The notes beneath the pieces were generated by a model that was given only the letters and a program-made list of their open reading frames with translations, was not told the origin of the DNA and did no database searches. The translations under genes were made by a program, and so were the position numbers. This document shows positions 9,913-56,482 of a stretch of DNA of 64,000 nucleotides, in pieces (position 1 is the stretch's first letter; the number at the start of each line of letters is the position of its first letter). Source of the DNA: a virus (taxonomy: Duplodnaviria > Caudoviricetes); IMG/VR virus record IMGVR_UViG_3300021093_000004; one strand, 5' to 3'.

Positions 9913-10752
9913 ATGGATAGACTCGCATTATTGGTTGACGCTCGAAATGTGCTCTATCGAGCAATTTATGCAGTTCGTGCTGATCGTCAGCACGAAGTGA
10001 AATACCATTATATAGTGATATTATTGCGTCAGTTCACGAATTGGATGCGAACTCATAATCCATCATCTGTCCACGTCTTTTGGGATGCTCCCAGAGATAC
10101 AGTATGGCGACGAGCTGCGTTGAAGACTTACAAAGATCGATCGGTAAGCCAATATGTCGAAGATATTTCTCAAGATCTTGCGACCACCACGATGGCCGCG
10201 ATGGAATTATTCTCGGTTTTGAATGTCCGACAGTATTCTCGAAAGCAGATGGAGGCGGACGACCTGATTTATGCAGCAACGACTATATTGCATCCATGTA
10301 AATCAGTGATCATATCGACAGACAGTGATTTACTGCAAATCCCTTTTCTCTATAGCAGTGCTTCCGTCTTCGATCCTAAGAAGATGGAATTTGCGGAGAT
10401 TCCAGCACATCATCCTGCTTTGATGAAGTCAATTGTAGGGGATAAAGCGGACTCGATTGAAGGGTATCATGGGATTGGCCCTAAGAAGGGCACCATGCTG
10501 CTTGAAAATCCACTACATCTACAAGAATTCCTGGATTTAAAGGGTAGAGATCGTTACCACCGAAATTTGTTATTGACAGATCTTTCTTTGTGTCCGCGTC
10601 TGCTCGCGAACAAATTATATATACAGAGAGTCATGGCGGAGCCTGTGACGTTTGATAAATCCAAGATCTCAGAATTGGTTAGGAAACATAAATTGCTGGG
10701 GTTGGATTCCGAATATGCTAATCTCATCCCACCTTTCTCCAGATTATCATGA
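9913..10752 (+). CDS. 5'-3' exonuclease / T4 RNase H-like flap endonuclease
   Basis: LLVDARN, VFWDAP, YKDR, MEADD, STDSDLLQ, GDKADSIEGYHGIGPK (H3TH). Confidence 0.92.
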   Translation: MDRLALLVDARNVLYRAIYAVRADRQHEVKYHYIVILLRQFTNWMRTHNPSSVHVFWDAPRDTVWRRAALKTYKDRSVSQYVEDISQDLATTTMAAMELFSVLNVRQYSRKQMEADDLIYAATTILHPCKSVIISTDSDLLQIPFLYSSASVFDPKKMEFAEIPAHHPALMKSIVGDKADSIEGYHGIGPKKGTMLLENPLHLQEFLDLKGRDRYHRNLLLTDLSLCPRLLANKLYIQRVMAEPVTFDKSKISELVRKHKLLGLDSEYANLIPPFSRLS

Positions 10753-11530
10753 GCCTGATCAGGTTCCCATACCGTTCGTAATTCTCTCGCAACCTCGAAC
10801 GGGATCTACCCTGGTGTGTTCGTTGCTGTCGAGCCATCCAAGTATACGTGCTCTCGTCGAACCAATAAATCCGCTTGGTCATTCGCACCACATGAAGCCG
10901 ATCAAGGGTTCAAAATGTCTATTACCAGAAGCGATGGTGCAAACGAATTTGCCGCGTGCCTTACGCCTCTTGTTCGATAGAAAGCCTCCTCCAGAAAAAT
11001 GGGTGTTGAGTCGGAAAGAGGCACCCAAAGCCGCTGGTTTCAAGATTATGGCACATCAATTGATGGCCTTGAAGAGTGAACCAGTTTTTTGGCAATATTT
11101 GGTCGATCACAAAATTAAAGTCATTCTTGTATTCAGATACAATACTGTAATGCAATATATCTCTGATCTTATCGTCCAAAAGACTTACCAACCGACTTGT
11201 TGGGATGGTGATATTAAAACTGCTCAGGTCAAGGTTCCAATCGAATCGTTAGAGAAAAATCTTCGAAGAATTATGATGGAGAAACGATACTTAGTCAAGA
11301 AAGTCACAGAACTTGGTCTTGAGAAACGTAGATTGAAATATGAAGATTTTAAGGACGATATTACTCCGGTAAGTCGTTTGATCCCATGGTTGATCGGTGA
11401 ACGTGCCCCATTGACTACTAAGTTATCAAAGCAAAATCCCGACAGTATGAGGGCACGGGTGAAAAATTACAATGAGTTGGTGCGTGAACTTCAACGACTG
11501 AATTTGGACCATCTGATCGTAGATAATTAG
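10715..11530 (+). CDS. sulfotransferase (Stf0-like)
   Basis: FVILSQPRTGSTLVCSLLSSHP 5'-PSB loop; GFKIM; start uncertain. Confidence 0.85.
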   Translation: MLISSHLSPDYHEPDQVPIPFVILSQPRTGSTLVCSLLSSHPSIRALVEPINPLGHSHHMKPIKGSKCLLPEAMVQTNLPRALRLLFDRKPPPEKWVLSRKEAPKAAGFKIMAHQLMALKSEPVFWQYLVDHKIKVILVFRYNTVMQYISDLIVQKTYQPTCWDGDIKTAQVKVPIESLEKNLRRIMMEKRYLVKKVTELGLEKRRLKYEDFKDDITPVSRLIPWLIGERAPLTTKLSKQNPDSMRARVKNYNELVRELQRLNLDHLIVDN

Positions 11531-11543
11531 TGGAGAACCTACT

Positions 11544-11819
11544 ATGGCAATAGCAGTACACGTAGCTCGCGTCGGTGTTTTCACAGTTGATCAAAACGGC
11601 CAACGTATCGACAAAGGTAGTCCGAATACTACCATCAATCAACTGAAAAACACTGGCCAAGACATATTGGTTATTCCAGACGCCGCGATTCCGGCGTCTG
11701 CGAGCTATCCAACGGTGAAGGCGTATTTAGAAGCTGAAGCAGCTTCGGATTTCGTTTTGCATCACATGGATCAGACCTGCATCGTCACGTATAACCAATC
11801 TCAGGTAAATTCTGCATAA
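11544..11819 (+). CDS. small hypothetical protein
   Basis: 91-aa ORF with GGAG SD. Confidence 0.7.
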   Translation: MAIAVHVARVGVFTVDQNGQRIDKGSPNTTINQLKNTGQDILVIPDAAIPASASYPTVKAYLEAEAASDFVLHHMDQTCIVTYNQSQVNSA

Positions 11820-12511
11820 TGGGCCATCGTATACGATTGCATTTGGCACCAAACTACGATAAATCGCTGGCTCCAATGCCAGCGAAAAAACTTCGTGATT
11901 GGTGGGAGGACAACAACAGAACTAAAGACCACGCCAAGCATTGCCTTCCGCTTTCTATGGCAAACAGTCTTGGCTTCTATATTCGTTCTCCAGGCACATT
12001 TCTTGTCAGATGGAATGGTGATATTCAAGCTCCGGCCAAAGTCGAAGCCGTAGAGAAATCATCACATTATGAAGTTGACGCACATGCCGCTTTCGGGTCG
12101 TTCACTATTCAGGCCAAATTTGTGCCAGTGACCGATGATCCGGGAGATTTTGTTTATATCAAGGGCATTCCGAATGAGCGATCGATGCCCTATTCATGTA
12201 TGGAGGCTTGCATTGAAGCATGGTGGAATGTCGGTAATTTCGGCTTGGTGTATCTCCTGAATCAACCAGGGGAATTTATGATTCATATGGGGCAGCCCAT
12301 CGCACACATGTTTCTGTATCACGGGGCTGCTGGGTCGGCGGACTTGGAGCTTGCTGATAATTATCCAGAGCAACATGTGGGGTGGCATTATAAACGCACA
12401 CGTCCAGATTATCAAAAAGATCTCGATTATATGCGAGGTCTTACTTTTGATGGTCAGAAGATTGAATCGCATATAACCAATTGGCGAGATGCTGCAAAAT
12501 TTAGGAAATAG
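11819..12511 (+). CDS. DUF6065-like protein
   Basis: HCLPLSMANSLGFYIRSP; FGSFTIQ. Confidence 0.7.
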   Translation: MGHRIRLHLAPNYDKSLAPMPAKKLRDWWEDNNRTKDHAKHCLPLSMANSLGFYIRSPGTFLVRWNGDIQAPAKVEAVEKSSHYEVDAHAAFGSFTIQAKFVPVTDDPGDFVYIKGIPNERSMPYSCMEACIEAWWNVGNFGLVYLLNQPGEFMIHMGQPIAHMFLYHGAAGSADLELADNYPEQHVGWHYKRTRPDYQKDLDYMRGLTFDGQKIESHITNWRDAAKFRK

Positions 12512-12514
12512 ACC

Positions 12515-13285
12515 ATGAGTGTGCTTGATGACTGGATTAATCCGTATTATCTAACCGACGATGCCGTCGAAGACATCCACGAATCAATACTCGCTAAACC
12601 ATCTATTAGATATGCCGTTCTTGATGATTTCTTCAAGACCGACAAATTAGACCAACTAATTGCACACCATCACACATTGCAATTTAGTGAAGAGATGGAT
12701 CGTCGTTCTCCTAAAAATGGCGAACTTTTGCCATACGATGGGTCCGTGTGCTTTGCCCAGCCCGGCGTTCACTTTGGATCTGAACTGTTTTTCGACGATG
12801 AATGGCATCGATATTGTTGCTATCTTACTGGTGCGAAGTTGAATTTTCCTGCCGGGACTGAAATAAAACTTCGTTATCACAGACCAAAAGCAGATGGGTT
12901 CTGGATTCATACTGATAGCACAATCAGGGCGGTGGTCGCAATCGCATATTTCAATAAGAATTGGAGACTATCAGACGGTGGAGTGTTACAGCTATGGAGG
13001 GTTGATGAGGCCACCGACCCAGACGCTTTTACAATTGAAAGTCCAAAAGGACGTATGGATTTTCTAACTCGTCATACCAGAATTCGAACTCGAACTCCGG
13101 GTGGTGGTTTTCCTGACAAACAACCGCATGATCTGGTACTGATTGATCAGGTAGTGCCTGCGTATAATCGATTGTTTTTATGCAATTTTCAACATTCGCC
13201 AGCGTACCATAGTGTAACTCCAAGTGGTGAAAAAGCACGACTTGGATTTGTACAATGGCTTTTTGAACGTAATTCGAGATTATAA
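12515..13285 (+). CDS. 2OG-Fe(II) oxygenase, prolyl-hydroxylase-like
   Basis: WIHTD (HxD), YFNKNW..DGGVLQLW, PAYNRL, YHSV, distal R. Confidence 0.88.
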   Translation: MSVLDDWINPYYLTDDAVEDIHESILAKPSIRYAVLDDFFKTDKLDQLIAHHHTLQFSEEMDRRSPKNGELLPYDGSVCFAQPGVHFGSELFFDDEWHRYCCYLTGAKLNFPAGTEIKLRYHRPKADGFWIHTDSTIRAVVAIAYFNKNWRLSDGGVLQLWRVDEATDPDAFTIESPKGRMDFLTRHTRIRTRTPGGGFPDKQPHDLVLIDQVVPAYNRLFLCNFQHSPAYHSVTPSGEKARLGFVQWLFERNSRL

Positions 13286-13947
13286 TGCCAAAACCAACTT
13301 CTGAAGAAATGTCCCGGATCGGACGTTCGAATGTCCGCCGTAGCAAGAGCCACGAACGTCGTGTTGCTCACCTGTTGACCGATTGGGCCGGGGTCGAATT
13401 TCGCCGCCGCCGCGTTGAAGGCCGAGATTCAACGGTTATTGAACGGGAATCGACAGCAGATGTTATCCCTGTCAAAGGAGACATTCTATTCTCTATTGAA
13501 GCCAAGTGCGGAGAATGCACAAGCCTGGACGGGTTATTGTCAAATCCGATGTCGAATAAATTCACCGGATGGTGGCATCAGTGTGTCTATGATGCCGAAT
13601 TGTTGTCGGCCACATTCAAACGGAAATTTTATCCTCTGTTGTTTTTCAAACCACATCCGAACTTCGATTGGATAGCCGTCGATCAAGAGGTTTTCGTATC
13701 TAAGATCTTGACCCCAACCGAAGCGGCGAAACCTTCACATGTCTTGGCATCCGATCACAATATGCCCATTTGGATGCCGAATATAGCCTATGATGGTTAT
13801 AATCTCGTTGGACCAGTCACCCACGATGTATCGCACTCGAAGAAACATCCGGTGATGAAAACATTGACACTGCCATCTCTCTATATGATCCGTTGGAAAG
13901 ACTTTGCACATACAGTTAATCCAACATCGGTGTTTGTCCAAACCTAA
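13285..13947 (+). CDS. PD-(D/E)xK nuclease, Holliday junction resolvase-like
   Basis: SKSHERRVAHLL...ADVI...SIEAK. Confidence 0.7.
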   Translation: MPKPTSEEMSRIGRSNVRRSKSHERRVAHLLTDWAGVEFRRRRVEGRDSTVIERESTADVIPVKGDILFSIEAKCGECTSLDGLLSNPMSNKFTGWWHQCVYDAELLSATFKRKFYPLLFFKPHPNFDWIAVDQEVFVSKILTPTEAAKPSHVLASDHNMPIWMPNIAYDGYNLVGPVTHDVSHSKKHPVMKTLTLPSLYMIRWKDFAHTVNPTSVFVQT

Positions 13948-13969
13948 AAATAGCTTGGAGACACAATAT

Positions 13970-14140
13970 ATGTCTTGCTGTGGAAAATCTGCAACTATTC
14001 GTGTTGAGCGAACTCATGTTGCAGCAAGTAACCGTCCGAAAATCGTGCGAACAACGAAGCACAATTTGAGTGCTAAGGTTGCAGTACCATCATCTACAGC
14101 GGTAAAACCAGCAAATGACCGTGAAAAATACAGGGTATAA
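13970..14140 (+). CDS. small basic protein starting MSCCG
   Basis: GGAG SD; 56 aa. Confidence 0.6.
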   Translation: MSCCGKSATIRVERTHVAASNRPKIVRTTKHNLSAKVAVPSSTAVKPANDREKYRV

Positions 14141-14142
14141 TT

Positions 14143-14412
14143 ATGGCATGCTGTGGCGGTGGAAGTAGTAAACGCTCTGTACGTTCGGCTTCTGTGGTGT
14201 CTGCTCATGCAGCCCCCAAACCGCCCAAGACGCCCGCTATACGGAAAATCACACGTCAGCGGAACGCGGCGACACCGGCCTCAATTCAGAGGCAATATGT
14301 AATCCCGCGACACGTATGTCCAAAGTGCGGACATCCGACTATGTTAGTACATATTGCTAACCGTGAAAGGCAGCAGTGTACGAACATAGATTGTAGATTT
14401 GTAATCCAATGA
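14143..14412 (+). CDS. small basic protein starting MACCG with C-terminal zinc ribbon
   Basis: CPKCG...CTNIDC. Confidence 0.7.
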   Translation: MACCGGGSSKRSVRSASVVSAHAAPKPPKTPAIRKITRQRNAATPASIQRQYVIPRHVCPKCGHPTMLVHIANRERQQCTNIDCRFVIQ

Positions 14413-14846
14413 CATCAATTTTTATATGGATCATGCTGATCATCGCCACTGAGCGGGCGACTGAACTTATCGTGGAGTCGAAGATATTCGAGCCACTTCG
14501 ACTAAGAGTAAAACGATTGGTTTATCCCGGTGATGCTCCCCCGCCAGACACGTTTTTCCAACATGTGAAAGTCATGTTCGATTACTTGTTACATTGCGGG
14601 TATTGTGTAAGCGTATGGATGGGCGGGTTCTTTGCATTGTTTGCAGAGAGGTATTTTGAACCAATATTTCTAAATTGGTTCTTGTCTGCATTATTCCTTC
14701 ACGGGATGTCCAATCTTCACCATGTTGGATACGAATTGGCACGCAGAGGAAGAATCAAAACGTACGATGTTATGTTCAAGGTGGCAATAGACGAATCAAT
14801 TTCAATTCCTGCCGATGAGGAGTCCGAGGGGTCCGATGCCGTTTGA
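14409..14846 (+). CDS. DUF1360-like membrane protein
   Basis: ATERATELIVESKIFEPLR; LLHCGYCVSVW; hydrophobic helices. Confidence 0.7.
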   Translation: MTSIFIWIMLIIATERATELIVESKIFEPLRLRVKRLVYPGDAPPPDTFFQHVKVMFDYLLHCGYCVSVWMGGFFALFAERYFEPIFLNWFLSALFLHGMSNLHHVGYELARRGRIKTYDVMFKVAIDESISIPADEESEGSDAV

Positions 14847-15354
14847 AGATCTTGAAAAAGCGATGGCACGGCAGAGTCAAAAGCTGAACCCATCTGTGGT
14901 TCTTCAGCCGGTAGCGGTATATCAGGTAGATGATATCAAACGAGTATTGTCGGAAATCGATCCCAAGAATACTCGTCCAGCACCTGAGATTCAACTCGCT
15001 GCTCTATTGAGTGCTATGGAAGATGGGAAGAATAATACGTATCGTGTAACGGCTGTCACCAAATCCAGAAGCAAAAGGGAAATGTTGCTTGAAGGCATGG
15101 ACCTTATCAAGCGGCAAATCGAAGCCACAGATCAAATCGCTGAAAAATTAGAACCCACTGAAGTCAATGGCGTTCTGATGCAACCACCGAAATTTGGAAA
15201 AGCCGGTAAAGGCCAAACCTGGATAGATCCGCTAATTCGCCACTGGCTTGGTGGCTATCGTGACGGATTGACGATTTGTTGGGATCTGGATGGATACCAG
15301 TACCGTTATGACATCTATGAGCATAAGCTTGGTCGAGTAAAACATGAAGCCTGA
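14836..15354 (+). CDS. hypothetical protein
   Basis: ORF, GAGGGG SD. Confidence 0.65.
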   Translation: MPFEDLEKAMARQSQKLNPSVVLQPVAVYQVDDIKRVLSEIDPKNTRPAPEIQLAALLSAMEDGKNNTYRVTAVTKSRSKREMLLEGMDLIKRQIEATDQIAEKLEPTEVNGVLMQPPKFGKAGKGQTWIDPLIRHWLGGYRDGLTICWDLDGYQYRYDIYEHKLGRVKHEA

Positions 15355-15661
15355 TCAAGATTTACCACACTTGGCTCAATATCGGCAACTGGCCGACTAT
15401 TCACCAGCATATGGCGATTTTGTCGTATGGTCTGGGTGGTTTATCACTTGGCACGGCGTCGTATCAAATTATGACCTGAAGACAGAGGAGTTGTACATAA
15501 TTTTCGCTGGAGTTCCGTTCCTATTGTTCACGATGGACGAAGAGGAACAGAAGCGGGAAACCAAGAAAATCAAACTATCGAAGATTAAAAATGCGTCGCA
15601 AGGGAACTGGGCAATCCAACAGCACGACCACGCCAGAAACGCGGTCATCTGGTATATCTAA
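15344..15661 (+). CDS. hypothetical protein
   Basis: 105-aa coupled ORF. Confidence 0.65.
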   Translation: MKPDQDLPHLAQYRQLADYSPAYGDFVVWSGWFITWHGVVSNYDLKTEELYIIFAGVPFLLFTMDEEEQKRETKKIKLSKIKNASQGNWAIQQHDHARNAVIWYI

Positions 15662-16244
15662 ACTACCGCAACTTCCACAAGTTTTAACTTATCCTTCATA
15701 TCTGCCATTTGCTAAATTAGAAAAGACTGTCCATAGCTTATTCTGTTATGTGATTCGGCACTACGGGAACGATGGGCTTTCTGTTCTTGTATATCGTCAA
15801 CCGACTAAGGATCAAGTAGTCGTCATCTGCGGTGATTGGAAGGGCAATAATTTAGATATAACTTACGATTCGCCGCTATCCAATATTGCGAACAAATTTC
15901 TCCAAGAGTCCGTCGCAACGTTTATTGGCACAATGCGACTGATTAAATTGGATCAAGCACAATTCTTCTTTGGTGTCATTGACGACGAATTGGTACTTGT
16001 TGATATTCAAGTATCGCGTAATAAATTGACCGGACCCGGCATGGTTCGTGATATTTTTGGCAAAATATTCAAGACCCAGGAGATTCTAAAAGTCGAAGTT
16101 CTTGATGATCGAGCTATAGAAGGTATCCGTGATGGTGCTGGTACCTATGCTGGAGATCTGATTATTAAGCCATCTCGATTTCGTATGTATCACGACGAGA
16201 AAATTAATTCATTCGCTCCGATGTATGTTGAGGTGGTACGCTAA
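15591..16244 (+). CDS. hypothetical protein (possible degenerate RNA-ligase-like fold)
   Basis: 217-aa ORF; see findings. Confidence 0.6.
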   Translation: MRRKGTGQSNSTTTPETRSSGISKLPQLPQVLTYPSYLPFAKLEKTVHSLFCYVIRHYGNDGLSVLVYRQPTKDQVVVICGDWKGNNLDITYDSPLSNIANKFLQESVATFIGTMRLIKLDQAQFFFGVIDDELVLVDIQVSRNKLTGPGMVRDIFGKIFKTQEILKVEVLDDRAIEGIRDGAGTYAGDLIIKPSRFRMYHDEKINSFAPMYVEVVR

Positions 16245-18211
16245 TGCCCGAATATGTCAATCCGAATGCGTTTACCGTGCACTTGGCCGGACCCGATGGG
16301 AAGATTATCAAGGTAAAGAGCCGCCAGAAAGTGGTTTTGTCTGAATTCTACGAGAGGTATCGGACCAGGGGGTTTATTAAGCTAGTATCTGAGGTTCAAT
16401 CGCCGCCTGTTTCGGCTCAAATTGCTCCGACTAGGAAAATTCAGGCTAAAATCAATCTAACCACCCCAGTCAAGAGACGGCAACAACAATCGGCTACGCG
16501 ACCACCAGTCGCTCAGCCACAACCCCAGCCTCAGATTCCAAGCCAAGGACAGATAATTCAAAATCGCAAACAACGTCGAGAAGAAATCGCAAGAGCACGG
16601 AAGATTTCAAAAACTAAACCAGCAAAAACGGTAGTGAAGAGACCTCAAATAATTGGTCGGACGATTAATACGAATCCGACAGAACTGCTAAAATCGAATT
16701 TGGCGAGAGGCAACTATCCCATCAGCAATGGTGTCGGGGTTGGTATACTATCATTTAATCGGAAAGATGCTCTTCAACGCCTCGTCAATTCGATCATTGC
16801 CACAACCGATCTTCGTCGTACGACCATCTTTGTCAGTGATGACGGCAGTACAAATGAGGATATCAAAGCGTATCTCGACGAATTAGCACAAAATGATAAT
16901 TTTGTGATAATCAGAAACGAGAACAGGATTGGTATCGCCGGAAATACTAATCGATTGCTTCGCTGCTTGTCCAGATTCGCATATGGCATAATTTTAAATG
17001 ATGATATCGAAATTATGGGACAGGGGTGGGATACGTTCTATGTGGAGGCGATGGCGAAATCCGCAATGCACCATTTCATTTATCGTCAAGAAGGCGTATA
17101 TGGGGCGACACTTGGCAGTTCGAGAAAGATAAACGATGTCGACATAAGTATGGTGTCTGAAAGGCCGCACGGAGCGGTGCTGGCATTTACGAATCATATG
17201 CTTGAGAAATGTGGTTATTTTGATGAGGGATATGGCTTATACGGAATGGAGCATGTGGATTGGTCTAGAAAAGCATGGGAATTTGGATTGCAGCCAGAAG
17301 GCTTTTTCGACGTAGCCGGATCAGACCAGTTTTTCTATCTGCATTCTGATGTCTCTGCTGTTGAGAATCGGCAAACGTTGCTGAAAGATGCGAAGAAGAG
17401 ATTCGAGGAACGAATCATCCAACGCTGTGCTCCAACTGATGCATCACAGGTGCCGGAAATTAGTTATATTATTCCATTCAGAAATATTGGTCGCACTGAC
17501 GCAATAAGAAGTGTCGTCAACAATATTAGAAGCCAGCGGTTCCCTGTTATTAATATCTTGCTTGTAGAACAAGATGTCGAATCACGTATCACAGCTTCAG
17601 ACTTTAGTCCAGTTAATTACTATCTTGCTAGTGAGGTTAACAACCCGCTTTTTAACAAATCAATGGCGTTCAATTTTGCTGCATCGAAAGTCGCAACCCA
17701 ACGAGTGATACTTCACGACGCCGATACCATTGTTCAAGGGCATTATACTGCATCTGTGTACAAGACGCTTGATACTCATACGGCTTGTCACGTTGGTAAT
17801 GCTGTGATTTATGCAGACACTGCTTCCAGCGACATCATAAACGCGACGGGTCTTGTCACTAACGAAACTCGTTGTGAACGTGTAGTCGGATATTTTGAAG
17901 GTGGGTCACTTGCTTGTCATATGAAAACCTACTGGCAATGCGGAGCCTTTAATGAAGATTTTTGGGGATATGGCTGCGAGGATTGTGATTTTTATGCTCG
18001 ATTATCAGCAAATAGTGTGTGGTCGGAAGACCGCGTATTTGACTTCTTGCACTTGTGGCACGGACGAGTAGCGGGATGGAACATGCACCACGAGACTAAT
18101 CGGCGTATTGAAGCAGCACTGACTAGCCGTCAGATGTATGAACGAGTTCAGCTTCAATATTCGCAACTCCATCGGTTAGGATATGGGCATTTCATCTCCA
18201 AATCTGAATGA
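16244..18211 (+). CDS. two-domain GT-A (GT2-like) glycosyltransferase with N-terminal extension
   Basis: FVSDDGST, NRIGIAGNTN, LNDD, YGMEHVDW; second domain YIIPFR, FNKSMAFN, HDAD, WGYGCEDCDF. Confidence 0.9.
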   Translation: MPEYVNPNAFTVHLAGPDGKIIKVKSRQKVVLSEFYERYRTRGFIKLVSEVQSPPVSAQIAPTRKIQAKINLTTPVKRRQQQSATRPPVAQPQPQPQIPSQGQIIQNRKQRREEIARARKISKTKPAKTVVKRPQIIGRTINTNPTELLKSNLARGNYPISNGVGVGILSFNRKDALQRLVNSIIATTDLRRTTIFVSDDGSTNEDIKAYLDELAQNDNFVIIRNENRIGIAGNTNRLLRCLSRFAYGIILNDDIEIMGQGWDTFYVEAMAKSAMHHFIYRQEGVYGATLGSSRKINDVDISMVSERPHGAVLAFTNHMLEKCGYFDEGYGLYGMEHVDWSRKAWEFGLQPEGFFDVAGSDQFFYLHSDVSAVENRQTLLKDAKKRFEERIIQRCAPTDASQVPEISYIIPFRNIGRTDAIRSVVNNIRSQRFPVINILLVEQDVESRITASDFSPVNYYLASEVNNPLFNKSMAFNFAASKVATQRVILHDADTIVQGHYTASVYKTLDTHTACHVGNAVIYADTASSDIINATGLVTNETRCERVVGYFEGGSLACHMKTYWQCGAFNEDFWGYGCEDCDFYARLSANSVWSEDRVFDFLHLWHGRVAGWNMHHETNRRIEAALTSRQMYERVQLQYSQLHRLGYGHFISKSE

Positions 18212-18410
18212 TATTATCAAATTCGTGGTGGTTACTTCTGAAGCCGCTGAGTTCTGCATGCGCCGTGGGATAACAGGAAAAGTTGTCGGACAACATGGCC
18301 CCATGCTGGAAATAGACGTTGGGTTTGGGTATAATATTTATACCCATTTACCTGAAGTTGAAGTCGTTGCAGTGCGATCAGAGATTCCGATTCCGGAGGA
18401 TGTAACATGA
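18183..18410 (+). CDS. small hypothetical protein
   Basis: 75-aa ORF overlapping both neighbours. Confidence 0.5.
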   Translation: MGISSPNLNDIIKFVVVTSEAAEFCMRRGITGKVVGQHGPMLEIDVGFGYNIYTHLPEVEVVAVRSEIPIPEDVT

Positions 18411-19354
18411 AAGTATTAGTCTGCCATCGTCCCGGTGGTGCGTTCGGATATATTAGTGACAGTTGGATTAATGCCCTACGAGATAAAGGGCATACGGTTC
18501 AACGCTGGGATGGGCATGACCACTCATGGCATGATTTTTCGCCGAATTTGTATATCGGGTGCTCTGGGCATAAACAGCCGATTCCACATCAACGGTCTGC
18601 GAAAATCGCTATCCATGTGAATCCCTATGGTCCGACAAAAATTCAGGGCATTGCTGAGTCCGATGAGAATATTCGTTGGACATTAAATCAAAAGCCCGAT
18701 GTGGTGTTCGGGTATGGTCACGAAGACGACCGAATTTTGTGGTCTTATTGGACTCAAAAACATGATATTCCGTGGGTTCCGATGCCGACCGCTGGAGATA
18801 AGACGCTGTTTCATCAATCTTCAGAAAATGATAAACAATATGATATTGTGTATCTTGGGGGTCGATGGCAGTACAAGGGTCTAATCATTGATGCTTATCT
18901 TATTCCATTCCTACAACAATCGAATAATTATAAACTTCACGGGTGGGGAGATTGGCCATCTAATATCTGTTCTGGGATTCTTGCAGAAGACCAAGTGAAC
19001 CGATTTCTTGGGAGTGGGCGTGTTGGTCCATGCATCTCGGAACGCCATACTCACGAATATGGCATCGATATTCCGGAGCGAGCATTCAAAGTTGCTCTAT
19101 GTGGTACGTTGGTGGTCCATGATGCAGTGGTTGCTATTCGCAGAATGATTCCATCCGCAATCATTGCAACCAATCCGGATCAATTTCGCAACTATTGTCT
19201 TCATTTCGCTAAACCGGAAAACGCTGCGGAAAGAATTGAAGTTACAAATCGCCAACGGAACGAAGTTTTGGAGGCACATACATACCATCATAGGATGGCG
19301 ACATTATTTGCCGCATTAGGGTTTCATACTGAAGCACAGCAAATGCTTTCATGA
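18407..19354 (+). CDS. CgeB-like (GT-B) glycosyltransferase
   Basis: YDIVYLGG, LHGWGDW, IPERAFKVALCG, HTYHHRM. Confidence 0.8.
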   Translation: MKVLVCHRPGGAFGYISDSWINALRDKGHTVQRWDGHDHSWHDFSPNLYIGCSGHKQPIPHQRSAKIAIHVNPYGPTKIQGIAESDENIRWTLNQKPDVVFGYGHEDDRILWSYWTQKHDIPWVPMPTAGDKTLFHQSSENDKQYDIVYLGGRWQYKGLIIDAYLIPFLQQSNNYKLHGWGDWPSNICSGILAEDQVNRFLGSGRVGPCISERHTHEYGIDIPERAFKVALCGTLVVHDAVVAIRRMIPSAIIATNPDQFRNYCLHFAKPENAAERIEVTNRQRNEVLEAHTYHHRMATLFAALGFHTEAQQMLS

Positions 19355-19369
19355 TGTCTGGGAGACACA

Positions 19370-20017
19370 ATGGCTCTGGCGACCGATAAGTGTATTTTCC
19401 TGCACATTCCGAAAACCGGTGGAATTTGGATTCGCCATGTTTTCAAAGTGTGTGGAATCCCTCATTATGAAATCGGTGAGCAACACTCTCATTTTCCTTT
19501 TCTATTCAATCTTCAGCCGCCAGAATTTTATAAAAATCACTATATCTTCACATTTGTTCGGCATCCGTTGACTTGGTATCAATCGAGATGGGCATTTCGA
19601 GTTAAGTATGGATGGCGAGCACAGCATCCTCTTGATTTTAATGCCGCATCAAACGATTTCCATGTTTTCATAGAGAATGTACTCAACTACAAGCCGAACG
19701 GTTGGGTTACATGGGAATATCTGAATTATATTGATGAAGTTCCGAACAAGATCGATTTTGTTGGCAGGATGGAAAACCTTGTGGAAGACACCATCTTCGC
19801 TTTGCGTGCTGCGGGTGAACGCTTTAGTGAGAATGCGGTTCGTTCGATTCCCCGTATTAATGATTCCGATATGGACGGCCACTCTTCGAAATATTGGGCA
19901 ACTTATACACCGGCATTAGTGGACAGAGTTTTGGCTGTTGACGGTGAGATCATTCGCAGATATTATCACGGATTTAATCTTGATCCCAGTATCCTTTGCA
20001 AACCCCGTCCGTATTGA
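19370..20017 (+). CDS. sulfotransferase (Sulfotransfer_2-like)
   Basis: FLHIPKTGG, FTFVRHP, DFVGRMENL. Confidence 0.88.
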   Translation: MALATDKCIFLHIPKTGGIWIRHVFKVCGIPHYEIGEQHSHFPFLFNLQPPEFYKNHYIFTFVRHPLTWYQSRWAFRVKYGWRAQHPLDFNAASNDFHVFIENVLNYKPNGWVTWEYLNYIDEVPNKIDFVGRMENLVEDTIFALRAAGERFSENAVRSIPRINDSDMDGHSSKYWATYTPALVDRVLAVDGEIIRRYYHGFNLDPSILCKPRPY

Positions 20018-20699
20018 CATGCTTTAATTTCCACTCTTGATATCCAGGCCCATCGTCTTGACGAAGATGCAGGACGTGAACGTTGGCAGCAATCCCTATG
20101 AAACGGTCCTGATTCGCCGCCGCTTTGCATAATTTTCCGTCATCGCTCCCATATAACTGATTTTGAGAATACCCACCAACACTCTCGAAGAATTCTCGAT
20201 CAATCAAGAATAACGGCCCCGCTGTGTGCCGATTGTAATATATCTCATCGACTATGTGATAGAATATTTTCTGGTTATGCATCACCAGATCACTCTTCTG
20301 TGTAATGAACCATTCGCCATACTTGTTCATGATAACAGGAGCGAGAATTCCGAATGGAACTGCTATTTTCTTTCTGGCCGCATAGAGTCTGGGCAGCCAA
20401 TTCGGGTATACCTCAATATCGGCGTCAATCGAAATAAAGTAATCAGATGATGTGGACTGCATGATTTGTGGATACCATCTCATTACACCGATACCTTTCC
20501 CCACGTTTGTTTCATTTCGATAAATAGTGACTTTTGGGTGGGACTCGTATTTGTCGAGAAATGCGTCAAGTCCTCCATGCGAATTATCGATAATAGATAG
20601 ATGGAAAGGTACAGCGGTGTTGTTGAGGACGGATTGTACTGATCGCTCGAAATCGTTCGGACGGAAGTACGATATCATAATTATTTGCACAGCATCCAT
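19974..20699 (-). CDS. GT2 glycosyltransferase
   Basis: IIDNS, NVGKG, SIDAD (DxD), GGYSQNQLYGSDD. Confidence 0.85.
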   Translation of the reverse strand: MDAVQIIMISYFRPNDFERSVQSVLNNTAVPFHLSIIDNSHGGLDAFLDKYESHPKVTIYRNETNVGKGIGVMRWYPQIMQSTSSDYFISIDADIEVYPNWLPRLYAARKKIAVPFGILAPVIMNKYGEWFITQKSDLVMHNQKIFYHIVDEIYYNRHTAGPLFLIDREFFESVGGYSQNQLYGSDDGKLCKAAANQDRFIGIAANVHVLHLRQDDGPGYQEWKLKHVNTDGVCKGYWDQD

Positions 20700-20714
20700 A
20701 CATTATGGTACGTC

Positions 20715-21194
20715 ATGATTGAGCAAAAAGGCGATATTTGGGAGTTTTACTACGAAGTTCGATGGCTCGTAATAACGACGAACATTGGATGGAAGAAAGA
20801 CGGAACTAACCCAATGGGCGCAGGGATTGCGAAACAAGCTGCCGATATGTTCCCAGACATGCCTGAATGGTATGGGGCAAGATGTAAAAAATTCGGAGCG
20901 AATACCGCTGTTGCTCCCTATGATCCGGCACGATTTTTTCTGTTTCCAACCAAGCCTCTCGATGAGGATAAACCGTGGATGTCTTGGCAGAACATGTCCA
21001 CGGTTGCATTAATAACTCGGTCGGCTAAACAATTATCTGCTTTGGTTGATATATTATCGAAGAGGAAAAATCACTTCTTCACTAAAATCGGCTTACCTAT
21101 GGTCGGATGTGAGAACGGGGGCTTACGCCCCCGTGATGTGTTGCCGATTTTACACGAGCTTCTTGATGATAGGTTCGTGCTATTTCAGAAATGA
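20715..21194 (+). CDS. macro domain (ADP-ribose processing) protein
   Basis: VITTN, MGAGIAKQ, FPTK, LPMVGCENGGL. Confidence 0.88.
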   Translation: MIEQKGDIWEFYYEVRWLVITTNIGWKKDGTNPMGAGIAKQAADMFPDMPEWYGARCKKFGANTAVAPYDPARFFLFPTKPLDEDKPWMSWQNMSTVALITRSAKQLSALVDILSKRKNHFFTKIGLPMVGCENGGLRPRDVLPILHELLDDRFVLFQK

Positions 21195-21425
21195 CTATCT
21201 GACGACGTAGGTAAGTAGACCGAGATGACGCAACTGCTCAAGCTGCCCTTGGTCCAGGCGACGGCTCTCGATGGAGAATTCGGCTCCTGGAGCAATCGGC
21301 ATCTGGGATGCTGTCGCAGATGGGATATCAGACCCACTGGCAGCATTGGCAGTTGGGATGCTGTTAACGAGAATGGGGACAACTTGCTTCGAAACATTCG
21401 TAATTGTCGTCAGGCTGGTTGCCAT
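21195..21425 (-). CDS. small protein, paralog of 36778..37026
   Basis: AGGAGA SD; similarity to pre-sheath protein by eye. Confidence 0.7.
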   Translation of the reverse strand: MATSLTTITNVSKQVVPILVNSIPTANAASGSDIPSATASQMPIAPGAEFSIESRRLDQGQLEQLRHLGLLTYVVR

Positions 21426-21462
21426 CGTATTTCTCCTGAGTATTTATTGTAATTGGGCCGCT

Positions 21463-22317
21463 ATGCCAGAAATCTCGATCATAACCTGCATTTCTCGACC
21501 AGACGTTTATAATAAATGTTTGCTTGATTCTATCAACAAAAATCGAAAAAACCACGACATTGAAATAATTCCAATTATCAACAATGATAATAAGTATTCT
21601 GCTAGCAACGCATTAAATATTGGAATCGATGTGGCGAGGTCGAATATTCTCGTTTTTGCCCATCAAGATGTTCGACTTCTCCATGGCTGGTTTGACAGAC
21701 TCGTAGACGCCTTGTCTAAGTTAGATGATAATTGGGGTGTTATCGGGTCTGCTGGAATCGCGTTGCAGTATGGAAGAAATGACATCGGGCGGTGGGGCGG
21801 GTCCGTAGATGTCCAAACAGTTGCTGTGGGATCGGTGTGGGATACCGATGAAAACCTGACACAACCACCATATTGGGATGGAATCAAAGAAATCACTCCG
21901 GTTCACTGTATCGACGAATGCGTCTTTGTACTAAATCGTCGAACCGGTCTCCGCTTCGATTCAATGTTTACCGGGTTCCATTTCTATGGCGTGGATATGT
22001 GTTTGCAAGCACGTGCCGCCGCATATTCGGTTTATGGCACACACTTACCAATGATCCATTATGGACAATATTCCGCCAGCTTCACTGGCGATAGGAAATA
22101 TTGGGTATATTTTCGATTCCTGCATCATAAATGGTCTAGGCGGTTCCCGGAACTGCTCGGTACGCACATGCATTGGGCACCGGGAGAGTTGACGAGTTAC
22201 ATATCGATAGGTCTCGAAGACGATGAATCTGGAACGACGGTCCAACTGAAAGCCATGGGAATAGATAAATCCAGATTCCGCAATGATAAAGACAGAGGGT
22301 TTATAGATGAGGTGTAA
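21463..22317 (+). CDS. GT2-like glycosyltransferase
   Basis: SASNALNIGI, VFAHQD, VHCIDEC, FHFYGVDMCLQA. Confidence 0.85.
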   Translation: MPEISIITCISRPDVYNKCLLDSINKNRKNHDIEIIPIINNDNKYSASNALNIGIDVARSNILVFAHQDVRLLHGWFDRLVDALSKLDDNWGVIGSAGIALQYGRNDIGRWGGSVDVQTVAVGSVWDTDENLTQPPYWDGIKEITPVHCIDECVFVLNRRTGLRFDSMFTGFHFYGVDMCLQARAAAYSVYGTHLPMIHYGQYSASFTGDRKYWVYFRFLHHKWSRRFPELLGTHMHWAPGELTSYISIGLEDDESGTTVQLKAMGIDKSRFRNDKDRGFIDEV

Positions 22318-22319
22318 TC

Positions 22320-23207
22320 TTGATTAAAGCTATAATCCTGTGCCATCCACAATCTAAAGACCTACTGTCCAAAAAGGCTTTCCACAGTTCTCTTGTGACG
22401 CCCATTCGTATTGCGTGCGGGACTACCAAACCAAAGGGTGTTGATTACTATGAATCAAATGACTTCTTTCCAACATATGCGTCATGGAATTCCGCGCTGT
22501 TCGAAACTTCGGTTATCTTAACAACGTGGGAACATGCGGATCAATTAATCGGCGACGATCACGTTGCGATCATGCATACTGATGTCACTCTTCACTTTAG
22601 AGCGGGAGAGACTTGGAAGAGATTGCACAAATCTTTAGAATCAGAACCAGACAGACCGATAGGGTTAACTGTTGCTTCTGCGTACCAAAACATGTGGGAT
22701 GAATGGATGGTGCCAGACAATGCACCATTTACTCCAAAATTCGATCCACAGAAAATACACGCATTTGATAATGAGATTTTTGTCTGGGATTTTATCAAGA
22801 AATATGATCAAGATATTCACGATTGGGCGATGGATACTAACCCCAAGTTAATCTATTCACATCAATTTGCGTGCACTAGGCCGATGTTCGATCAATTGGG
22901 CAACCGGCTTTATGCGGTTGCCCATCGGTTACGTCTGTCCGATATTGGCTTTTGGACGCCACACATGTTCGAGAGATTGATTGCTCTTTATTTGGCTAAA
23001 CTTGGTAAGCCGATTTTGACAACGGCTTTTTGGCATTATTCATCATCAGGTACGTTCGGACCCGGTGAATTTAGTCTTTATGGTCCACGAGCATTTCGAT
23101 ATTATCGGGTATACACGCGATGGAATGAGCAGAAACTGCTAGGTTCTACGGCAGACAGCCTTGAATTAGTGCCAGAAATGCCGCCTCAACCGATTCAAAG
23201 AATGTAG
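22320..23207 (+). CDS. putative glycosyltransferase-like protein (DUF4422-like)
   Basis: LFETSVILTTWEH...DHVAIMHTD and HMFERL resemble the ELTA..W/DYVG..H/ERL pattern. Confidence 0.45.
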   Translation: MIKAIILCHPQSKDLLSKKAFHSSLVTPIRIACGTTKPKGVDYYESNDFFPTYASWNSALFETSVILTTWEHADQLIGDDHVAIMHTDVTLHFRAGETWKRLHKSLESEPDRPIGLTVASAYQNMWDEWMVPDNAPFTPKFDPQKIHAFDNEIFVWDFIKKYDQDIHDWAMDTNPKLIYSHQFACTRPMFDQLGNRLYAVAHRLRLSDIGFWTPHMFERLIALYLAKLGKPILTTAFWHYSSSGTFGPGEFSLYGPRAFRYYRVYTRWNEQKLLGSTADSLELVPEMPPQPIQRM

Positions 23208-23492: not shown

Positions 23493-23831
23493 ATGACACA
23501 ACTTGATCCGCAATTGGTAGCAGCAGAAGCTCTTGAACTCCAAAAAGCCATTAATGGCCTTTTGGCTGATTTGGAAGAGAAAAAGACTCAATTACGAACT
23601 ATCGCAGACGGTAATCCGCTCAAAATAGTTGTGCCGGGATCTGGAGAAGTGAGCGTGTCTCGCCCTCGAAAGGGTGGAGAGAAAACAGGTACGAGAATCA
23701 AGCTGGTCGTGGATCGTCTTAATCTTGTGCCGGAACTTAAGAATCGTCTTCTTGAAAAAGGCGTTCTTGTTGAGGAAGATACGATCTCTACACCCGCTGC
23801 TGCATCGGTCGCGATTAAACCGAACGTCTAA
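23493..23831 (+). CDS. hypothetical protein
   Basis: GGGAG SD; 112 aa. Confidence 0.7.
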   Translation: MTQLDPQLVAAEALELQKAINGLLADLEEKKTQLRTIADGNPLKIVVPGSGEVSVSRPRKGGEKTGTRIKLVVDRLNLVPELKNRLLEKGVLVEEDTISTPAAASVAIKPNV

Positions 23832-23937
23832 GATATTCTTCGAAGGTAGTATTGATGGTTGGATTCGTGAACGATGTCCGCATGTCGAAATTGTTCATGT
23901 GCGTCTAACTCCGTCAAGTTAATAGATAACTGATTGG

Positions 23938-23953
23938 AAGTGTGCGAACACTT
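23938..23953 (+). terminator. short GNRA-capped hairpin upstream of the tRNA-like RNA (terminator or processing signal)
   Basis: AAGTGT-GCGA-ACACTT followed by TATT. Confidence 0.35.
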
Positions 23954-23965
23954 TATTGTGTCGTA

Positions 23966-24084
23966 CCCGGTGTAGCTCAGCCCGAAAGGGGGCTAACTGT
24001 TTGTGGTAAACCGCTTACAGTGGTAGCCCAGAGCGGACCTCTAACGGAGGTAAGGTCGCGGGTGCAAATCCTAGCCATCGGCCA
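23966..24084 (+). ncRNA. tRNA-like RNA with ~50-nt structured D-loop insertion
   Basis: CCGGTG/CATCGG acceptor, TA-GCTC-AG...GAGC D-stem, ACCT-CTAACGG-AGGT anticodon arm, AGGTC variable loop, GGG-TGCAAAT-CCT T arm, 3' CCA. Confidence 0.75.
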
Positions 24085-24085
24085 G

Positions 24086-24141
24086 GCTTGAGAGCCGTAA
24101 GGTGAGAATGGTAAACCATTCGATCCCCAAGGCTCTCAAGC
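24086..24141 (+). ncRNA. long structured hairpin immediately 3' of the tRNA-like RNA
   Basis: GCTTGAGAGCC/GGCTCTCAAGC 11-bp stem; inner GAATGG-TAAA-CCATTC. Confidence 0.65.
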
Positions 24142-24167
24142 GTATTTTGATTCTTCAAGGCAGAGAT

Positions 24168-24422
24168 ATGACCCGTGATCAAGTCGAAACCAAAATTGCT
24201 GAAATATTAGATCACGCACTTGGGATTGATCGCGACGAAATAGCTTCTAATGCTTTAATCCAACGTGACCTTGGTGCCGATTCACTCGATATGTTGGAAA
24301 TCAAATTCAGGCTTGGAGAGGTATTTGATCTTAATATTCGTGAAATCGAGTTCGACAATATATCCAATATGCTTACTGTGTCTGGGTTGGTCGATTTTAT
24401 AAACACGAAATTAACGAAATAA
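24168..24422 (+). CDS. acpP: acyl carrier protein
   Basis: DLGADSLDMLEI phosphopantetheine site; acidic 84 aa. Confidence 0.9.
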   Translation: MTRDQVETKIAEILDHALGIDRDEIASNALIQRDLGADSLDMLEIKFRLGEVFDLNIREIEFDNISNMLTVSGLVDFINTKLTK

Positions 24423-54307: not shown

Positions 54308-56482
54308 ATGGACAATATCCATGTCGTATGGTCGAAATTTTTCTCGCACCGTACCCGTGTACTGTGGGAACGGTTTCCTGGATATTATCGGGCGTTGGTT
54401 GTAGAAACCAACGATCCACTTAACATATATCGAGTGAGATTTAAATGTCCTGATATACATGATTTCGACTTAAAGCCAGAAGATTGTCCATATGCGGTTC
54501 CAGCCCATGATCTTGGTGGATATAGAGCAGGTCGTTTCACACATCCGTGCATTGGTGATTGGATCTGGATTACGTTTGAGCGTCAACATCCATACGCTCC
54601 TGTGTGGGTCGGCTTCGCTAGTCCTACAAGACGGAAATTATACACATACCCACAAGTATTTCAGGTCACACCACTGAGTGTGAATGAAGAGGGAAGACCG
54701 GCTGACAAGCCATCAGACTACGATGAGGAGTATCTGCCCAAAGACGGGCGTCCGATGATGCATGGATGGCAAGACCGCTATGGCAGTCTTGATATTCACT
54801 CTGCTGTTGGCTTCTTTCCGAACGAACATGATCGTCAGCCACCTCCCCCAGATCACGATGCAGTTCAAAAGGCTGACTTTGATCAGCAGCGTCGCAAGCC
54901 GGAGATTAATAATCCTGATAAGAAGTATATGGCCAGGGTTACGAAGTATGGCCACATGCTATTACTTGGTGATCAGGGATATTATTGGAAGAAAGACGAA
55001 TATGGGGAATTAGGAGAATTCGAAGGTAAATTCAAAGAGGACGAAAAATTTGAGATAAAGCGATGGCTATACCTTCAGCGTCTGATGAACGAGGATAAGC
55101 CGCGATCCGATAGGCCATTCGGTGATCAACGCCGAATGACTATGTTGACGCGGTATGGGCATAGAATTGAATGCCGTGATGTCGGTTGGGCACAACAAGG
55201 ACCAATCCAATCGAAATCTCGTCAAGGAGAATATGGACCACGGAAGATTTTATCCAAAGAAGAAAAGAATGATTTCAGATGGATTAAGATTCGTACAAAA
55301 GGTGGAATGTTATTTCAGGCTTATGATAAGGGATTCCACCCCGACGAAGATATATTCATTAAACGCAATTTGATCGAAGAACAAGGGCATCTGAGCGAAG
55401 AAGAGCACAAATACTGGAAAAATAAAGATGCTCGATGGATTCGGATTGTCACCCGGCATGGGTTGAAGCTAGTCCTTGATGATCGGGGCACCGACGATAA
55501 GCGTTCACATAAGAGAGAACTTCCACGTCCTAATGGGATTCTTTTTAAGGGACGCCGCACACCAGCCGCTAAAATGCGAGAAGCTCGCGGAAAGCCGCGT
55601 GGTTTCGTTTGGGAGTTCAATGAAAATGATGCGGCTAACCACACTATGTGGGCATCGCCGCTTGGACAATCGGTAGAATTGAATGACCGCTATCAATATA
55701 TGATGATGGCGGTGTCAATGGGCAAAGGCTGGGTTCGCAAATGGCAGAATCTGAAAGAGAATGAATTTAGCCGTAAACCAATGATGATCCGCAAGCCAGA
55801 GCGGACATCATATCATTTGAAATTAGACCATGATAACGAATACTTGCGACTGAAAACGCGAGCGAACAAGGGTCCAAAGCCAGAGCGTCCAGCTAATCCA
55901 TCTGGGGTCGGTAAATCTGAGATTAACCAAGGGCTTGAAGCCCGTGACGGTAAAAAGGGCGATGGACCTTGGGTCGAAATTGTGGACTGTCAACATCGCG
56001 GGATGTGGTGGTCCAAACGCTATAAACTTGGTATTTGGAGAGCCAGAAAAAAGCGTAAGATGTATATGTGGATGGATGAGAAGAAGCGTGAAATTGTGAT
56101 CTTTAATCGCAATGGAAAAATTATAATATATTCGAGCACGGATGTTCAAGTGGTCTCAGACCGCAATATTCATATGCAGGCCGCTGGGCATATTTTCATG
56201 AAGGCTGGGCGTTCTATCCGGATGCAGGCCGGTGGTACTAAACTAACCGTCGGTAGAAATATTCTTACTAACACGACCATAAACGCTGCTCGTGTCCAAG
56301 CTTTTATCTGTGGTGTCTTTCCGGGTCCTGGTGCTGGATGTGCGAATCCATCGGGCGCACAAGTGGAACCCGTTATACCACCAGAAATTCCAGATATAAT
56401 TGAACCAACGGATCGGGCTAAAACTTACAATGAACCATTTGAAGAATGTCCGAAGGATGAAGTGGAGCATCCTGTCGAATGA
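54308..56482 (+). CDS. baseplate spike, gp5-like with N-terminal OB fold
   Basis: YRALVVETNDPLNIYRVRF...PCIGDWIWITFE...PVWVG; C-terminal beta repeats. Confidence 0.85.
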   Translation: MDNIHVVWSKFFSHRTRVLWERFPGYYRALVVETNDPLNIYRVRFKCPDIHDFDLKPEDCPYAVPAHDLGGYRAGRFTHPCIGDWIWITFERQHPYAPVWVGFASPTRRKLYTYPQVFQVTPLSVNEEGRPADKPSDYDEEYLPKDGRPMMHGWQDRYGSLDIHSAVGFFPNEHDRQPPPPDHDAVQKADFDQQRRKPEINNPDKKYMARVTKYGHMLLLGDQGYYWKKDEYGELGEFEGKFKEDEKFEIKRWLYLQRLMNEDKPRSDRPFGDQRRMTMLTRYGHRIECRDVGWAQQGPIQSKSRQGEYGPRKILSKEEKNDFRWIKIRTKGGMLFQAYDKGFHPDEDIFIKRNLIEEQGHLSEEEHKYWKNKDARWIRIVTRHGLKLVLDDRGTDDKRSHKRELPRPNGILFKGRRTPAAKMREARGKPRGFVWEFNENDAANHTMWASPLGQSVELNDRYQYMMMAVSMGKGWVRKWQNLKENEFSRKPMMIRKPERTSYHLKLDHDNEYLRLKTRANKGPKPERPANPSGVGKSEINQGLEARDGKKGDGPWVEIVDCQHRGMWWSKRYKLGIWRARKKRKMYMWMDEKKREIVIFNRNGKIIIYSSTDVQVVSDRNIHMQAAGHIFMKAGRSIRMQAGGTKLTVGRNILTNTTINAARVQAFICGVFPGPGAGCANPSGAQVEPVIPPEIPDIIEPTDRAKTYNEPFEECPKDEVEHPVE

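Follow-up and report, generated by a model that had tools for sequence, protein, structure and literature searches.

A conserved, non-decoding tRNA-like RNA of large phages with its acceptor end closed in a three-way junction

The usual explanation for phage tRNAs is either codon supply or the evasion of anticodon nucleases. A cloverleaf at positions 23966–24084 of a viral DNA sequence of 64,000 nt (the window, meaning this whole stretch; IMG/VR record IMGVR_UViG_3300021093_000004) raises the question of whether such a fold is a real RNA, whether that RNA is a tRNA, and what it might do for the phage. The window belongs to a 157-kb IMG/VR viral record with a CheckV completeness of ~43%, the DNA of which occurs in lake-water metagenomes according to a sequencing-run search. 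It is recognizable as a large contractile-tailed phage by its PHROG matches, which include tail sheath, baseplate hub and wedge, DnaB-like helicase, primase, and ribonucleotide reductase. The cloverleaf sits in a 337-nt spacer between a small gene, here termed gene X (Table 1), and an acyl carrier protein (ACP) gene (24168–24422). Further upstream, positions 10715–23207 hold a glycosyltransferase/sulfotransferase gene cluster (GT2, GT-B-like, Sulfotransfer_2), and the gene pair immediately 5′ of gene X (GT2 and a ~295-aa protein) has the same order in relatives. A sigma-70 promoter scan of the + strand upstream of the RNA returned zero sites.

In the preliminary description, made from the sequence alone, the locus was read as an undescribed tRNA-shaped noncoding RNA or a tRNA with an unusual intron. 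The features on which this was based were confirmed on inspection: the acceptor stem CCGGUG/CAUCGG (23967–72/24076–81), U8 and A9, the D stem GCUC/GAGC, the AGGUC variable loop, the UGCAAAU T loop on a bulged T stem, and a D-loop containing CCC-GAAA-GGG followed by a second, long hairpin. Standard detectors were blank. ARAGORN, run with and without introns and with the tmRNA search (-m), returned zero genes for both the window and the 157-kb record, and no ordinary tRNA was found in the latter either. Searches of Rfam with positions 23800–24250, at the gathering score and at E up to 10, gave no match, self-cleaving ribozymes, YrlA, and group I introns included; the last two had already been set aside in the preliminary description. 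Folding of the window sequence alone was modestly better than that of shuffled sequences (z = −1.8). Because of this value and the blank detectors, the window by itself could not decide whether the fold is real.

Relatives of the RNA were therefore the deciding material. First homologues were reached from the neighbouring ligase gene to related viral contigs and from these by DNA search, which gave weak matches to both halves of the cloverleaf; with pattern scans of contigs, both viral and metagenomic, the close set grew to nine distinct sequences. Loci L157, L158, L163, and L165/L166 were added by searching contigs with distant gene X homologues, using a covariance model built from the family. 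In all, 12 distinct relatives from such contigs were thereby added to the window RNA, making up a family of uncultured large phages, whereas blastn against GenBank phages and an exact 19-mer scan gave no match. Covariance-model scores were 120–160 bits in the close clade and 36–92 bits for distant members; at the same loci, ordinary tRNAs and intron-bearing archaeal tRNAs score up to 53 bits, overlapping the distant members. The low-scoring L163, L165, and L166 were counted as family because of their GGAAGU leader, their leader hairpin P2, and their position near gene X. The RNA occurs once per phage record; one weak covariance-model match was seen at 56208–56248 (E-value 0.05).

Several other tRNA-like loci were noted among the contigs and are recorded as separate observations. 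On a 239-kb viral contig (L019:3500–3990, − strand), three tRNA-like elements lie in ~500 nt, elements 1 and 2 being in tandem. All three carry two hairpins inserted in the D-loop (CCC-UUCG-GGG and a GCAA-capped hairpin) and close the "anticodon" stem with a tetraloop or another short loop; the acceptor of element 1 has 7 bp, followed by U and CCA. They may be examples of a broader class, in huge phages, of tRNA-like RNAs without an anticodon. The viral contigs L026, L030, and L021 carry tRNA genes with the loop CUCUAAA, the anticodon CUA (amber suppressor), and a long variable arm, which suggests that these phages recode stop codons. In metagenome contigs L036, L049, L108, L119, L128, L135, L142, L143, and L145, a tRNA-Ile(GAU)-like gene recurs in which a short hairpin is inserted into the D-loop directly 3′ of GCUCAG, and many other metagenome-contig matches resemble archaeal-type tRNAs with D-loop introns.

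Comparison of the 13 sequences established that the cloverleaf at 23966–24084 is a real, conserved RNA and not a chance fold. In the alignment of all 13, built by fitting to the model, pairing reaches 95.3% of cells and compensatory changes occur at 42 of 48 pairs (4/4 in the D stem), as against 33–48% pairing in slid controls. A model-free MAFFT alignment of the nine close members, scored with a specified structure, had 94.6% of cells paired and compensatory changes at 32 of 49 pairs; these values were reached by 0 of 500 shuffles, and slid controls gave 35–50%. RNAalifold independently finds P1, P2, the acceptor stem, H2, and the anticodon-like stem (named as in Table 1). Decay into a pseudo-tRNA, which had been considered beforehand, does not agree with covariation across all helices.

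Table 1. Gene X, parts of the tRNA-like element, and the hairpin that follows it, in window coordinates
Feature	Position	Strand	Remarks
Gene X	23493–23831	+	112 aa, ends ...IKPNV; conserved; 5′ of the RNA in most loci
P1, 5′ strand UUGG	23934–23937	+	pairs with CCAG 24082–85; two inner G-C pairs invariant (13/13)
Junction strand AAGU	23938–23941	+	lone unpaired stretch of the three-way junction; invariant except U/A at last base
P2, leader hairpin, ~10 bp	23942–23966	+	23942–51 with 23958–66; A23948 bulged; loop UUUAUU
Acceptor, 5′ strand CCGGUG	23967–23972	+	6/6 pairs compensatory; 100% of cells paired
U8, A9, D-stem 5′ strand GCUC, A14, G15	23973–23980	+	invariant in close clade; D stem covaries in distant members
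D-loop insert, hairpin H1, CCC-GAAA-GGG	23981–23990	+	C-G to U-A in L023, L116
D-loop insert, second arm	23992–24024	+	basal helix GCU/GGU (23992–94/24022–24) around H2 (23996–24021, loop UAAA)
A18-G19 equivalents (24025–26), CCC, A21, D-stem 3′ strand GAGC	24025–24034	+	
G26 and "anticodon" arm	24035–24052	+	6-bp stem 24036–41/24047–52; first pair G.A in window; loop UAACG
Variable loop AGGUC and T arm	24053–24075	+	stem 24058–62/24070–75; A24073 bulged; loop UGCAAAU, G at position 55
Acceptor 3′ strand CAUCGG, then P1 3′ strand CCAG	24076–24085	+	acceptor 3′ half is 24076–81
Probable intrinsic terminator, long hairpin then U-rich tract	24086–24149	+	outside the conserved family

The relatives also show that the element is larger than the cloverleaf first described, running from ~23934 to 24085; the leader hairpin (P2) and the helix joining leader and trailer (P1) had been overlooked. 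P1, P2, and the 6-bp acceptor stem meet in a three-way junction, of which the GG/AAGU/CC nucleotides are invariant in 13/13 sequences (bar U or A at the last base of AAGU). Position −4/+4 of P1 is GC, AU, CG, or UG among relatives, and the whole helix is GGG/CCC in L158. Within P2, 7 of 10 pairs are compensatory, the closing pair (alignment columns 12–37) being GC in 6 sequences, AU in 2, and GU in 1; its last pair, G23942-C23966, takes tRNA "position 1" and abuts the acceptor stem. A CCA had been reported directly after the acceptor stem and is indeed present (24082–84; CCC in L158), but in the transcript it is paired, since UGG (23935–37) pairs there in P1.

The D-loop insert of 45–50 nt, with its two hairpins, occupies D-loop positions 16/17, at the outer corner beside the elbow. 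H1 is capped by GAAA, CUCG, UUCG, or GAAU among relatives, and the helices of the second arm (basal and H2) covary while ranging in length from ~10 to 26 nt. The GGCUA/UAGCC pairing originally drawn at the base of this arm finds no support in relatives, which favour the 3-bp basal helix listed in Table 1. The two-hairpin insert is missing in L158, L165, and L166; it is a lineage-specific expansion and not an intron. The motif TGGTAAACC occurs at 24004–24012, where it caps H2, and at 24109–24117, where it caps the downstream terminator-like hairpin. These are its only two copies in the 157-kb record (~1.3 expected); it is kept in none of the relatives, nor in a 92%-identical contig (X25, below), and was treated as local.

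For the "anticodon" arm, a seven-nucleotide loop CT-AAC-GG above a mismatched first pair had been proposed. The G.A first pair holds, but the better arrangement is a 6-bp stem with a 5-nt UAACG loop, and the loop is not conserved. All six stem pairs are compensatory (6/6); the loop is UAACG in four close members, L165 and L166 have this sequence inside a 6-nt loop, and other relatives have GAAA, GAGA, CAUCG, CCUAAA, or CUACAA. In the T arm, the outer stem pairs G-C/C-G are replaced by A-U/G-C in L004, a compensatory change.

Outside the variable loops, the nucleotides that hold a tRNA together are retained. The close clade keeps U8, A9, A14, G15:C48, A21, G26, A44, and U54:A58. At the elbow, 18:55 is A:G in the window, L004, L018, L020, L023, L070, L116, L122, L157, and L158, and G:U (U55 with G18) in L012 and L163; 19:56 is G:C in 11 of these 12 and C:G in L158. 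The elbow co-changes at 18:55 and 19:56 (L012, L163, L158) are single instances, read from the sequences directly. In L165 and L166, G is absent at 18/19, and for this reason their elbow contact may differ or be lost. L165, which is insert-free, scores 35.3 bits on the Rfam tRNA model (RF00005) and so passes its gathering score of 29. We conclude that the RNA folds into a tRNA-like L, cannot decode, and is closed at its acceptor end in the primary transcript; it is most probably derived from a tRNA. The initial reading of an undescribed tRNA-shaped noncoding RNA thus agrees with the blank Rfam and ARAGORN searches of the window, the strong covariation, and the retained tRNA core and elbow.

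Set against a canonical tRNA (RF00005), the RNA shares U8, A9, the D stem, G15:C48, G26/A44, AGGUC, U54:A58, and the 19:56 pair. It differs in its 6-bp acceptor closed by P1/P2, with position 1 in P2 and the following CC in P1 where a tRNA has a 7-bp acceptor, a discriminator, and a free 3′ end; in G55 for U55 and the bulged T stem; in the variable loops on a 6-bp stem that stand in place of a conserved 7-nt loop with U33; and, in the lineage of the window, in the D-loop insert. The tRNA-like domain of tmRNA is likewise an acceptor and T-arm mimic without an anticodon; however, the phage RNA lacks G3:U70, a tag reading frame, and pseudoknots and has a true D stem, and the sole Rfam tmRNA match in the family (L163) reaches 12.9 bits against a gathering score of 47. 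Bacterial Y RNAs (YrlA; Deinococcus Yrn1) are also non-decoding, have a tRNA-like domain without a free CCA end, and can be phage-borne; YrlA, however, is permuted (T arm, closed acceptor, D arm), and both YrlA and Yrn1 adjoin Ro60 and carry a Ro-binding motif, neither of which was seen for the phage RNA. Phage T4 species 1 and 2 (rnaC, rnaD) resemble it as small stable phage RNAs of 119–139 nt, rnaC ending in a T-arm-like hairpin; they differ in lying in a tRNA cluster, and comparison by eye found no D stem, P1, P2, or evident sequence similarity. In mitochondrial transcripts and in MALAT1 (tRNA punctuation and mascRNA), a tRNA-shaped module is cut from a longer transcript by tRNA-processing enzymes, which sets mRNA ends and frees a small tRNA-like RNA. 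Those systems, however, are eukaryotic or organellar, and for the phage RNA such processing is proposed by inference. The family is without an Rfam model. tRNA-like phage RNAs (T4 species 1/2, YrlA, tmRNA) are a known kind; newness is judged here against Rfam, outside the catalogue of ~10,000 candidate viral structured RNAs (PMC10690425); what appears to be new is the combination of a closed acceptor junction, a missing anticodon, and an expanded elbow.

The position of the RNA in the phage genomes was then considered. Gene X belongs to a family of 144 clusters (profile search) with no match in Pfam or PHROG; its AlphaFold model (pLDDT 75) gave weak, uninformative fold matches (HU-like and Gam-like proteins). 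It is a widespread small phage gene with a DNA ligase repeatedly downstream, the ligase being NAD-dependent in the clade of the window and ATP-dependent in L161 (2501–3874), where an rIIB-like gene lies upstream. The ligase gene is found within one to three genes 3′ of the RNA in the window, L004, L012, L070, L116, and L122, and further downstream in L163. By comparison, the link to the ACP gene proved accidental: this gene is missing from related contigs, and a search for loci with it returned zero relatives. The genes directly downstream of the RNA in eight loci differ by locus, with no Pfam match and no shared partner. Another structured-looking spacer lies 3′ of a gene X homologue at L162:2842–3088; it has a T-arm-like hairpin (GUGGG-AUUUCGA-UCCCAC) and no match to the covariance model.

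In most loci, the RNA starts 0–35 nt past a stop codon, which is that of gene X in seven loci (L012, L018, L020, L023, L070, L122, and L157) and of another gene in L004 and L163. The gap between gene X and the RNA is ~100 nt in the window and ~540 nt in L116. In L158, a UGA stop codon forms part of P1 and the next gene begins 14–20 nt past the element; here, as in L163, the element lies between two genes and occupies the whole intercistronic gap. Terminator-like hairpins lie 3′ of the element in the window, L004, L012, and L070, the latter three unrelated to that of the window (24086–24149), which was missed by a simple terminator scan because its loop exceeds the size allowed there. From the stop-codon spacing, neighbours, and terminators, it follows that the transcript context is the end or interior of an operon and not a tRNA cluster.

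A hint of expression came from one sequencing run. The locus was found in no confirmed RNA run, the runs that contain its DNA being lake-water metagenomes. In a wastewater run (X25), which is labelled metagenomic RNA-seq and may be DNA, a 127-nt contig with a depth of 443 corresponds to 23976–24082 at ~92% identity, spanning the cloverleaf from the D stem through the first base that follows the acceptor; 3′ of 24082 there is one A and then library adapter. No sequence matching P1, P2, the terminator, or gene X was found in X25, nor any matching L070. The contig fits an abundant small RNA without leader that ends one nucleotide past the acceptor, as a single, indirect observation from contigs, which cannot prove ends.

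What the RNA does can be framed by its constraints. A tRNA shape is under strong selection without an anticodon or a free acceptor end, and therefore the shape itself must matter. The reading we favour, tentatively and with somewhat less than even confidence, is that host tRNA-processing nucleases excise the module at the junction, punctuating the mRNA and freeing a stable mimic of ~117 nt that acts through its elbow and core. The module would be recognized as tRNA-like, the candidates being RNase P for the 5′ cut and an endonuclease or 3′ trimming for the opposite end. Cuts at the junction would release the stable ~117-nt RNA and, by the same events, separate gene X from the following gene on the polycistronic mRNA; once freed, the non-decoding RNA could then serve as a mimic of, or competitor for, tRNA towards a factor that binds tRNA by shape. 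There is precedent for excision in that RNase P cleaves phage RNAs (M3, C4), mRNAs, and viral tRNA-like structures (PMC11143913). Against it, the evidence for processing comes from a single contig of a relative with 92% identity, and the run that contains it is possibly DNA. Position −1 is paired in P2 and CCA is paired in P1, both of which are unfavourable for bacterial RNase P. In addition, the invariance of AAGU and the covariation of P1 and P2 place the uncut form under selection, which suits a function of the intact junction equally well. No partner protein for the RNA was found.

Such a function is the content of the first-ranked rival, which we consider possible though rather unlikely: the whole P1/P2/tRNA-like fold would remain uncut, as an mRNA element at which the transcription unit of gene X ends. 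Its possible roles would be shielding the 3′ end against exonucleases, insulating or coupling the translation of neighbouring genes, or binding a regulator at the junction. The invariant GG/AAGU/CC junction and covarying P1 and P2 would be expected of such an element, as would an upstream stop codon within or beside P1 (L158, L020, and L163), a next start codon 9–20 nt past P1 (L158 and L163), and the terminator-like hairpins that follow in four loci. A near-perfect tRNA core and elbow, however, would be needless for a simple stabilizer, the downstream gene varies by locus, and the X25 contig is without P1 and P2.

Ranked second, and judged unlikely, is action in trans as a decoy or sponge, directed at a host defence or enzyme that reads the tRNA elbow or acceptor, with the D-loop hairpins tuning binding. 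The strongly constrained core and elbow, the lineage-specific expansion adjoining the elbow, the single copy per phage record, and the lack of an ordinary tRNA in 157 kb are in line with this, whereas it has no known target and the primary transcript has a closed acceptor end. Anticodon nucleases in particular are unlikely targets of a decoy, because the "anticodon" loop is unconserved. The decoy also overlaps with the favoured excision model, as it concerns how the product would act after excision.

A tether resembling Y RNA of the Deinococcus Yrn1 type, whose 5′ and 3′ ends pair and bind a Ro60-like protein, with an effector recruited through the tRNA-like domain (PMC4201824), ranks third and is very improbable here. 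The order of modules is the same (end-pairing helix, D arm, stem-loop, and T arm; PMC4201824), but no TROVE/Ro60 or RtcB gene was found in the 157-kb record, itself ~43% complete, the Ro-binding motif GNCGAA is absent, and Rfam searches up to an E-value of 10 matched neither Y RNA nor YrlA.

The weakest account, a tRNA gene with a D-loop intron or a decaying pseudo-tRNA, is disfavoured to the point of near-dismissal: archaeal tRNAs with D-loop introns are common in metagenomes, and of 280 manual trial deletions of the insert, 5 gave a weak tRNA-Val(AAC) call when ARAGORN ran in low-threshold mode, but at the normal threshold it is silent, the 6-bp acceptor joins CCA without a discriminator nucleotide in between, the insert is conserved and covarying as a structure (and missing in distant members), its removal leaves no anticodon and yields no decoding tRNA because no relative keeps a 7-nt anticodon loop (GAAA or GAGA in some), and covariation in all helices excludes decay.

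Taken together with the favoured excision model, the family may amount to a new class of phage noncoding RNA, a broader proposal that we regard as speculative and rather doubtful in its entirety: a tRNA scaffold stripped of decoding and charging, with a closed three-way junction and lineage-specific elbow hairpins, which would be matured from mRNA and would occupy or divert a host factor recognizing tRNA by its shape, such as a processing enzyme, a defence nuclease, or the ribosome. Elements of this type escape standard tRNA and Rfam scans. The family can show whether bacterial viruses use tRNA-like punctuation of mRNA, and it provides a well-defined, covariation-supported RNA for identifying the host or phage factors that recognize the tRNA elbow in the course of infection.
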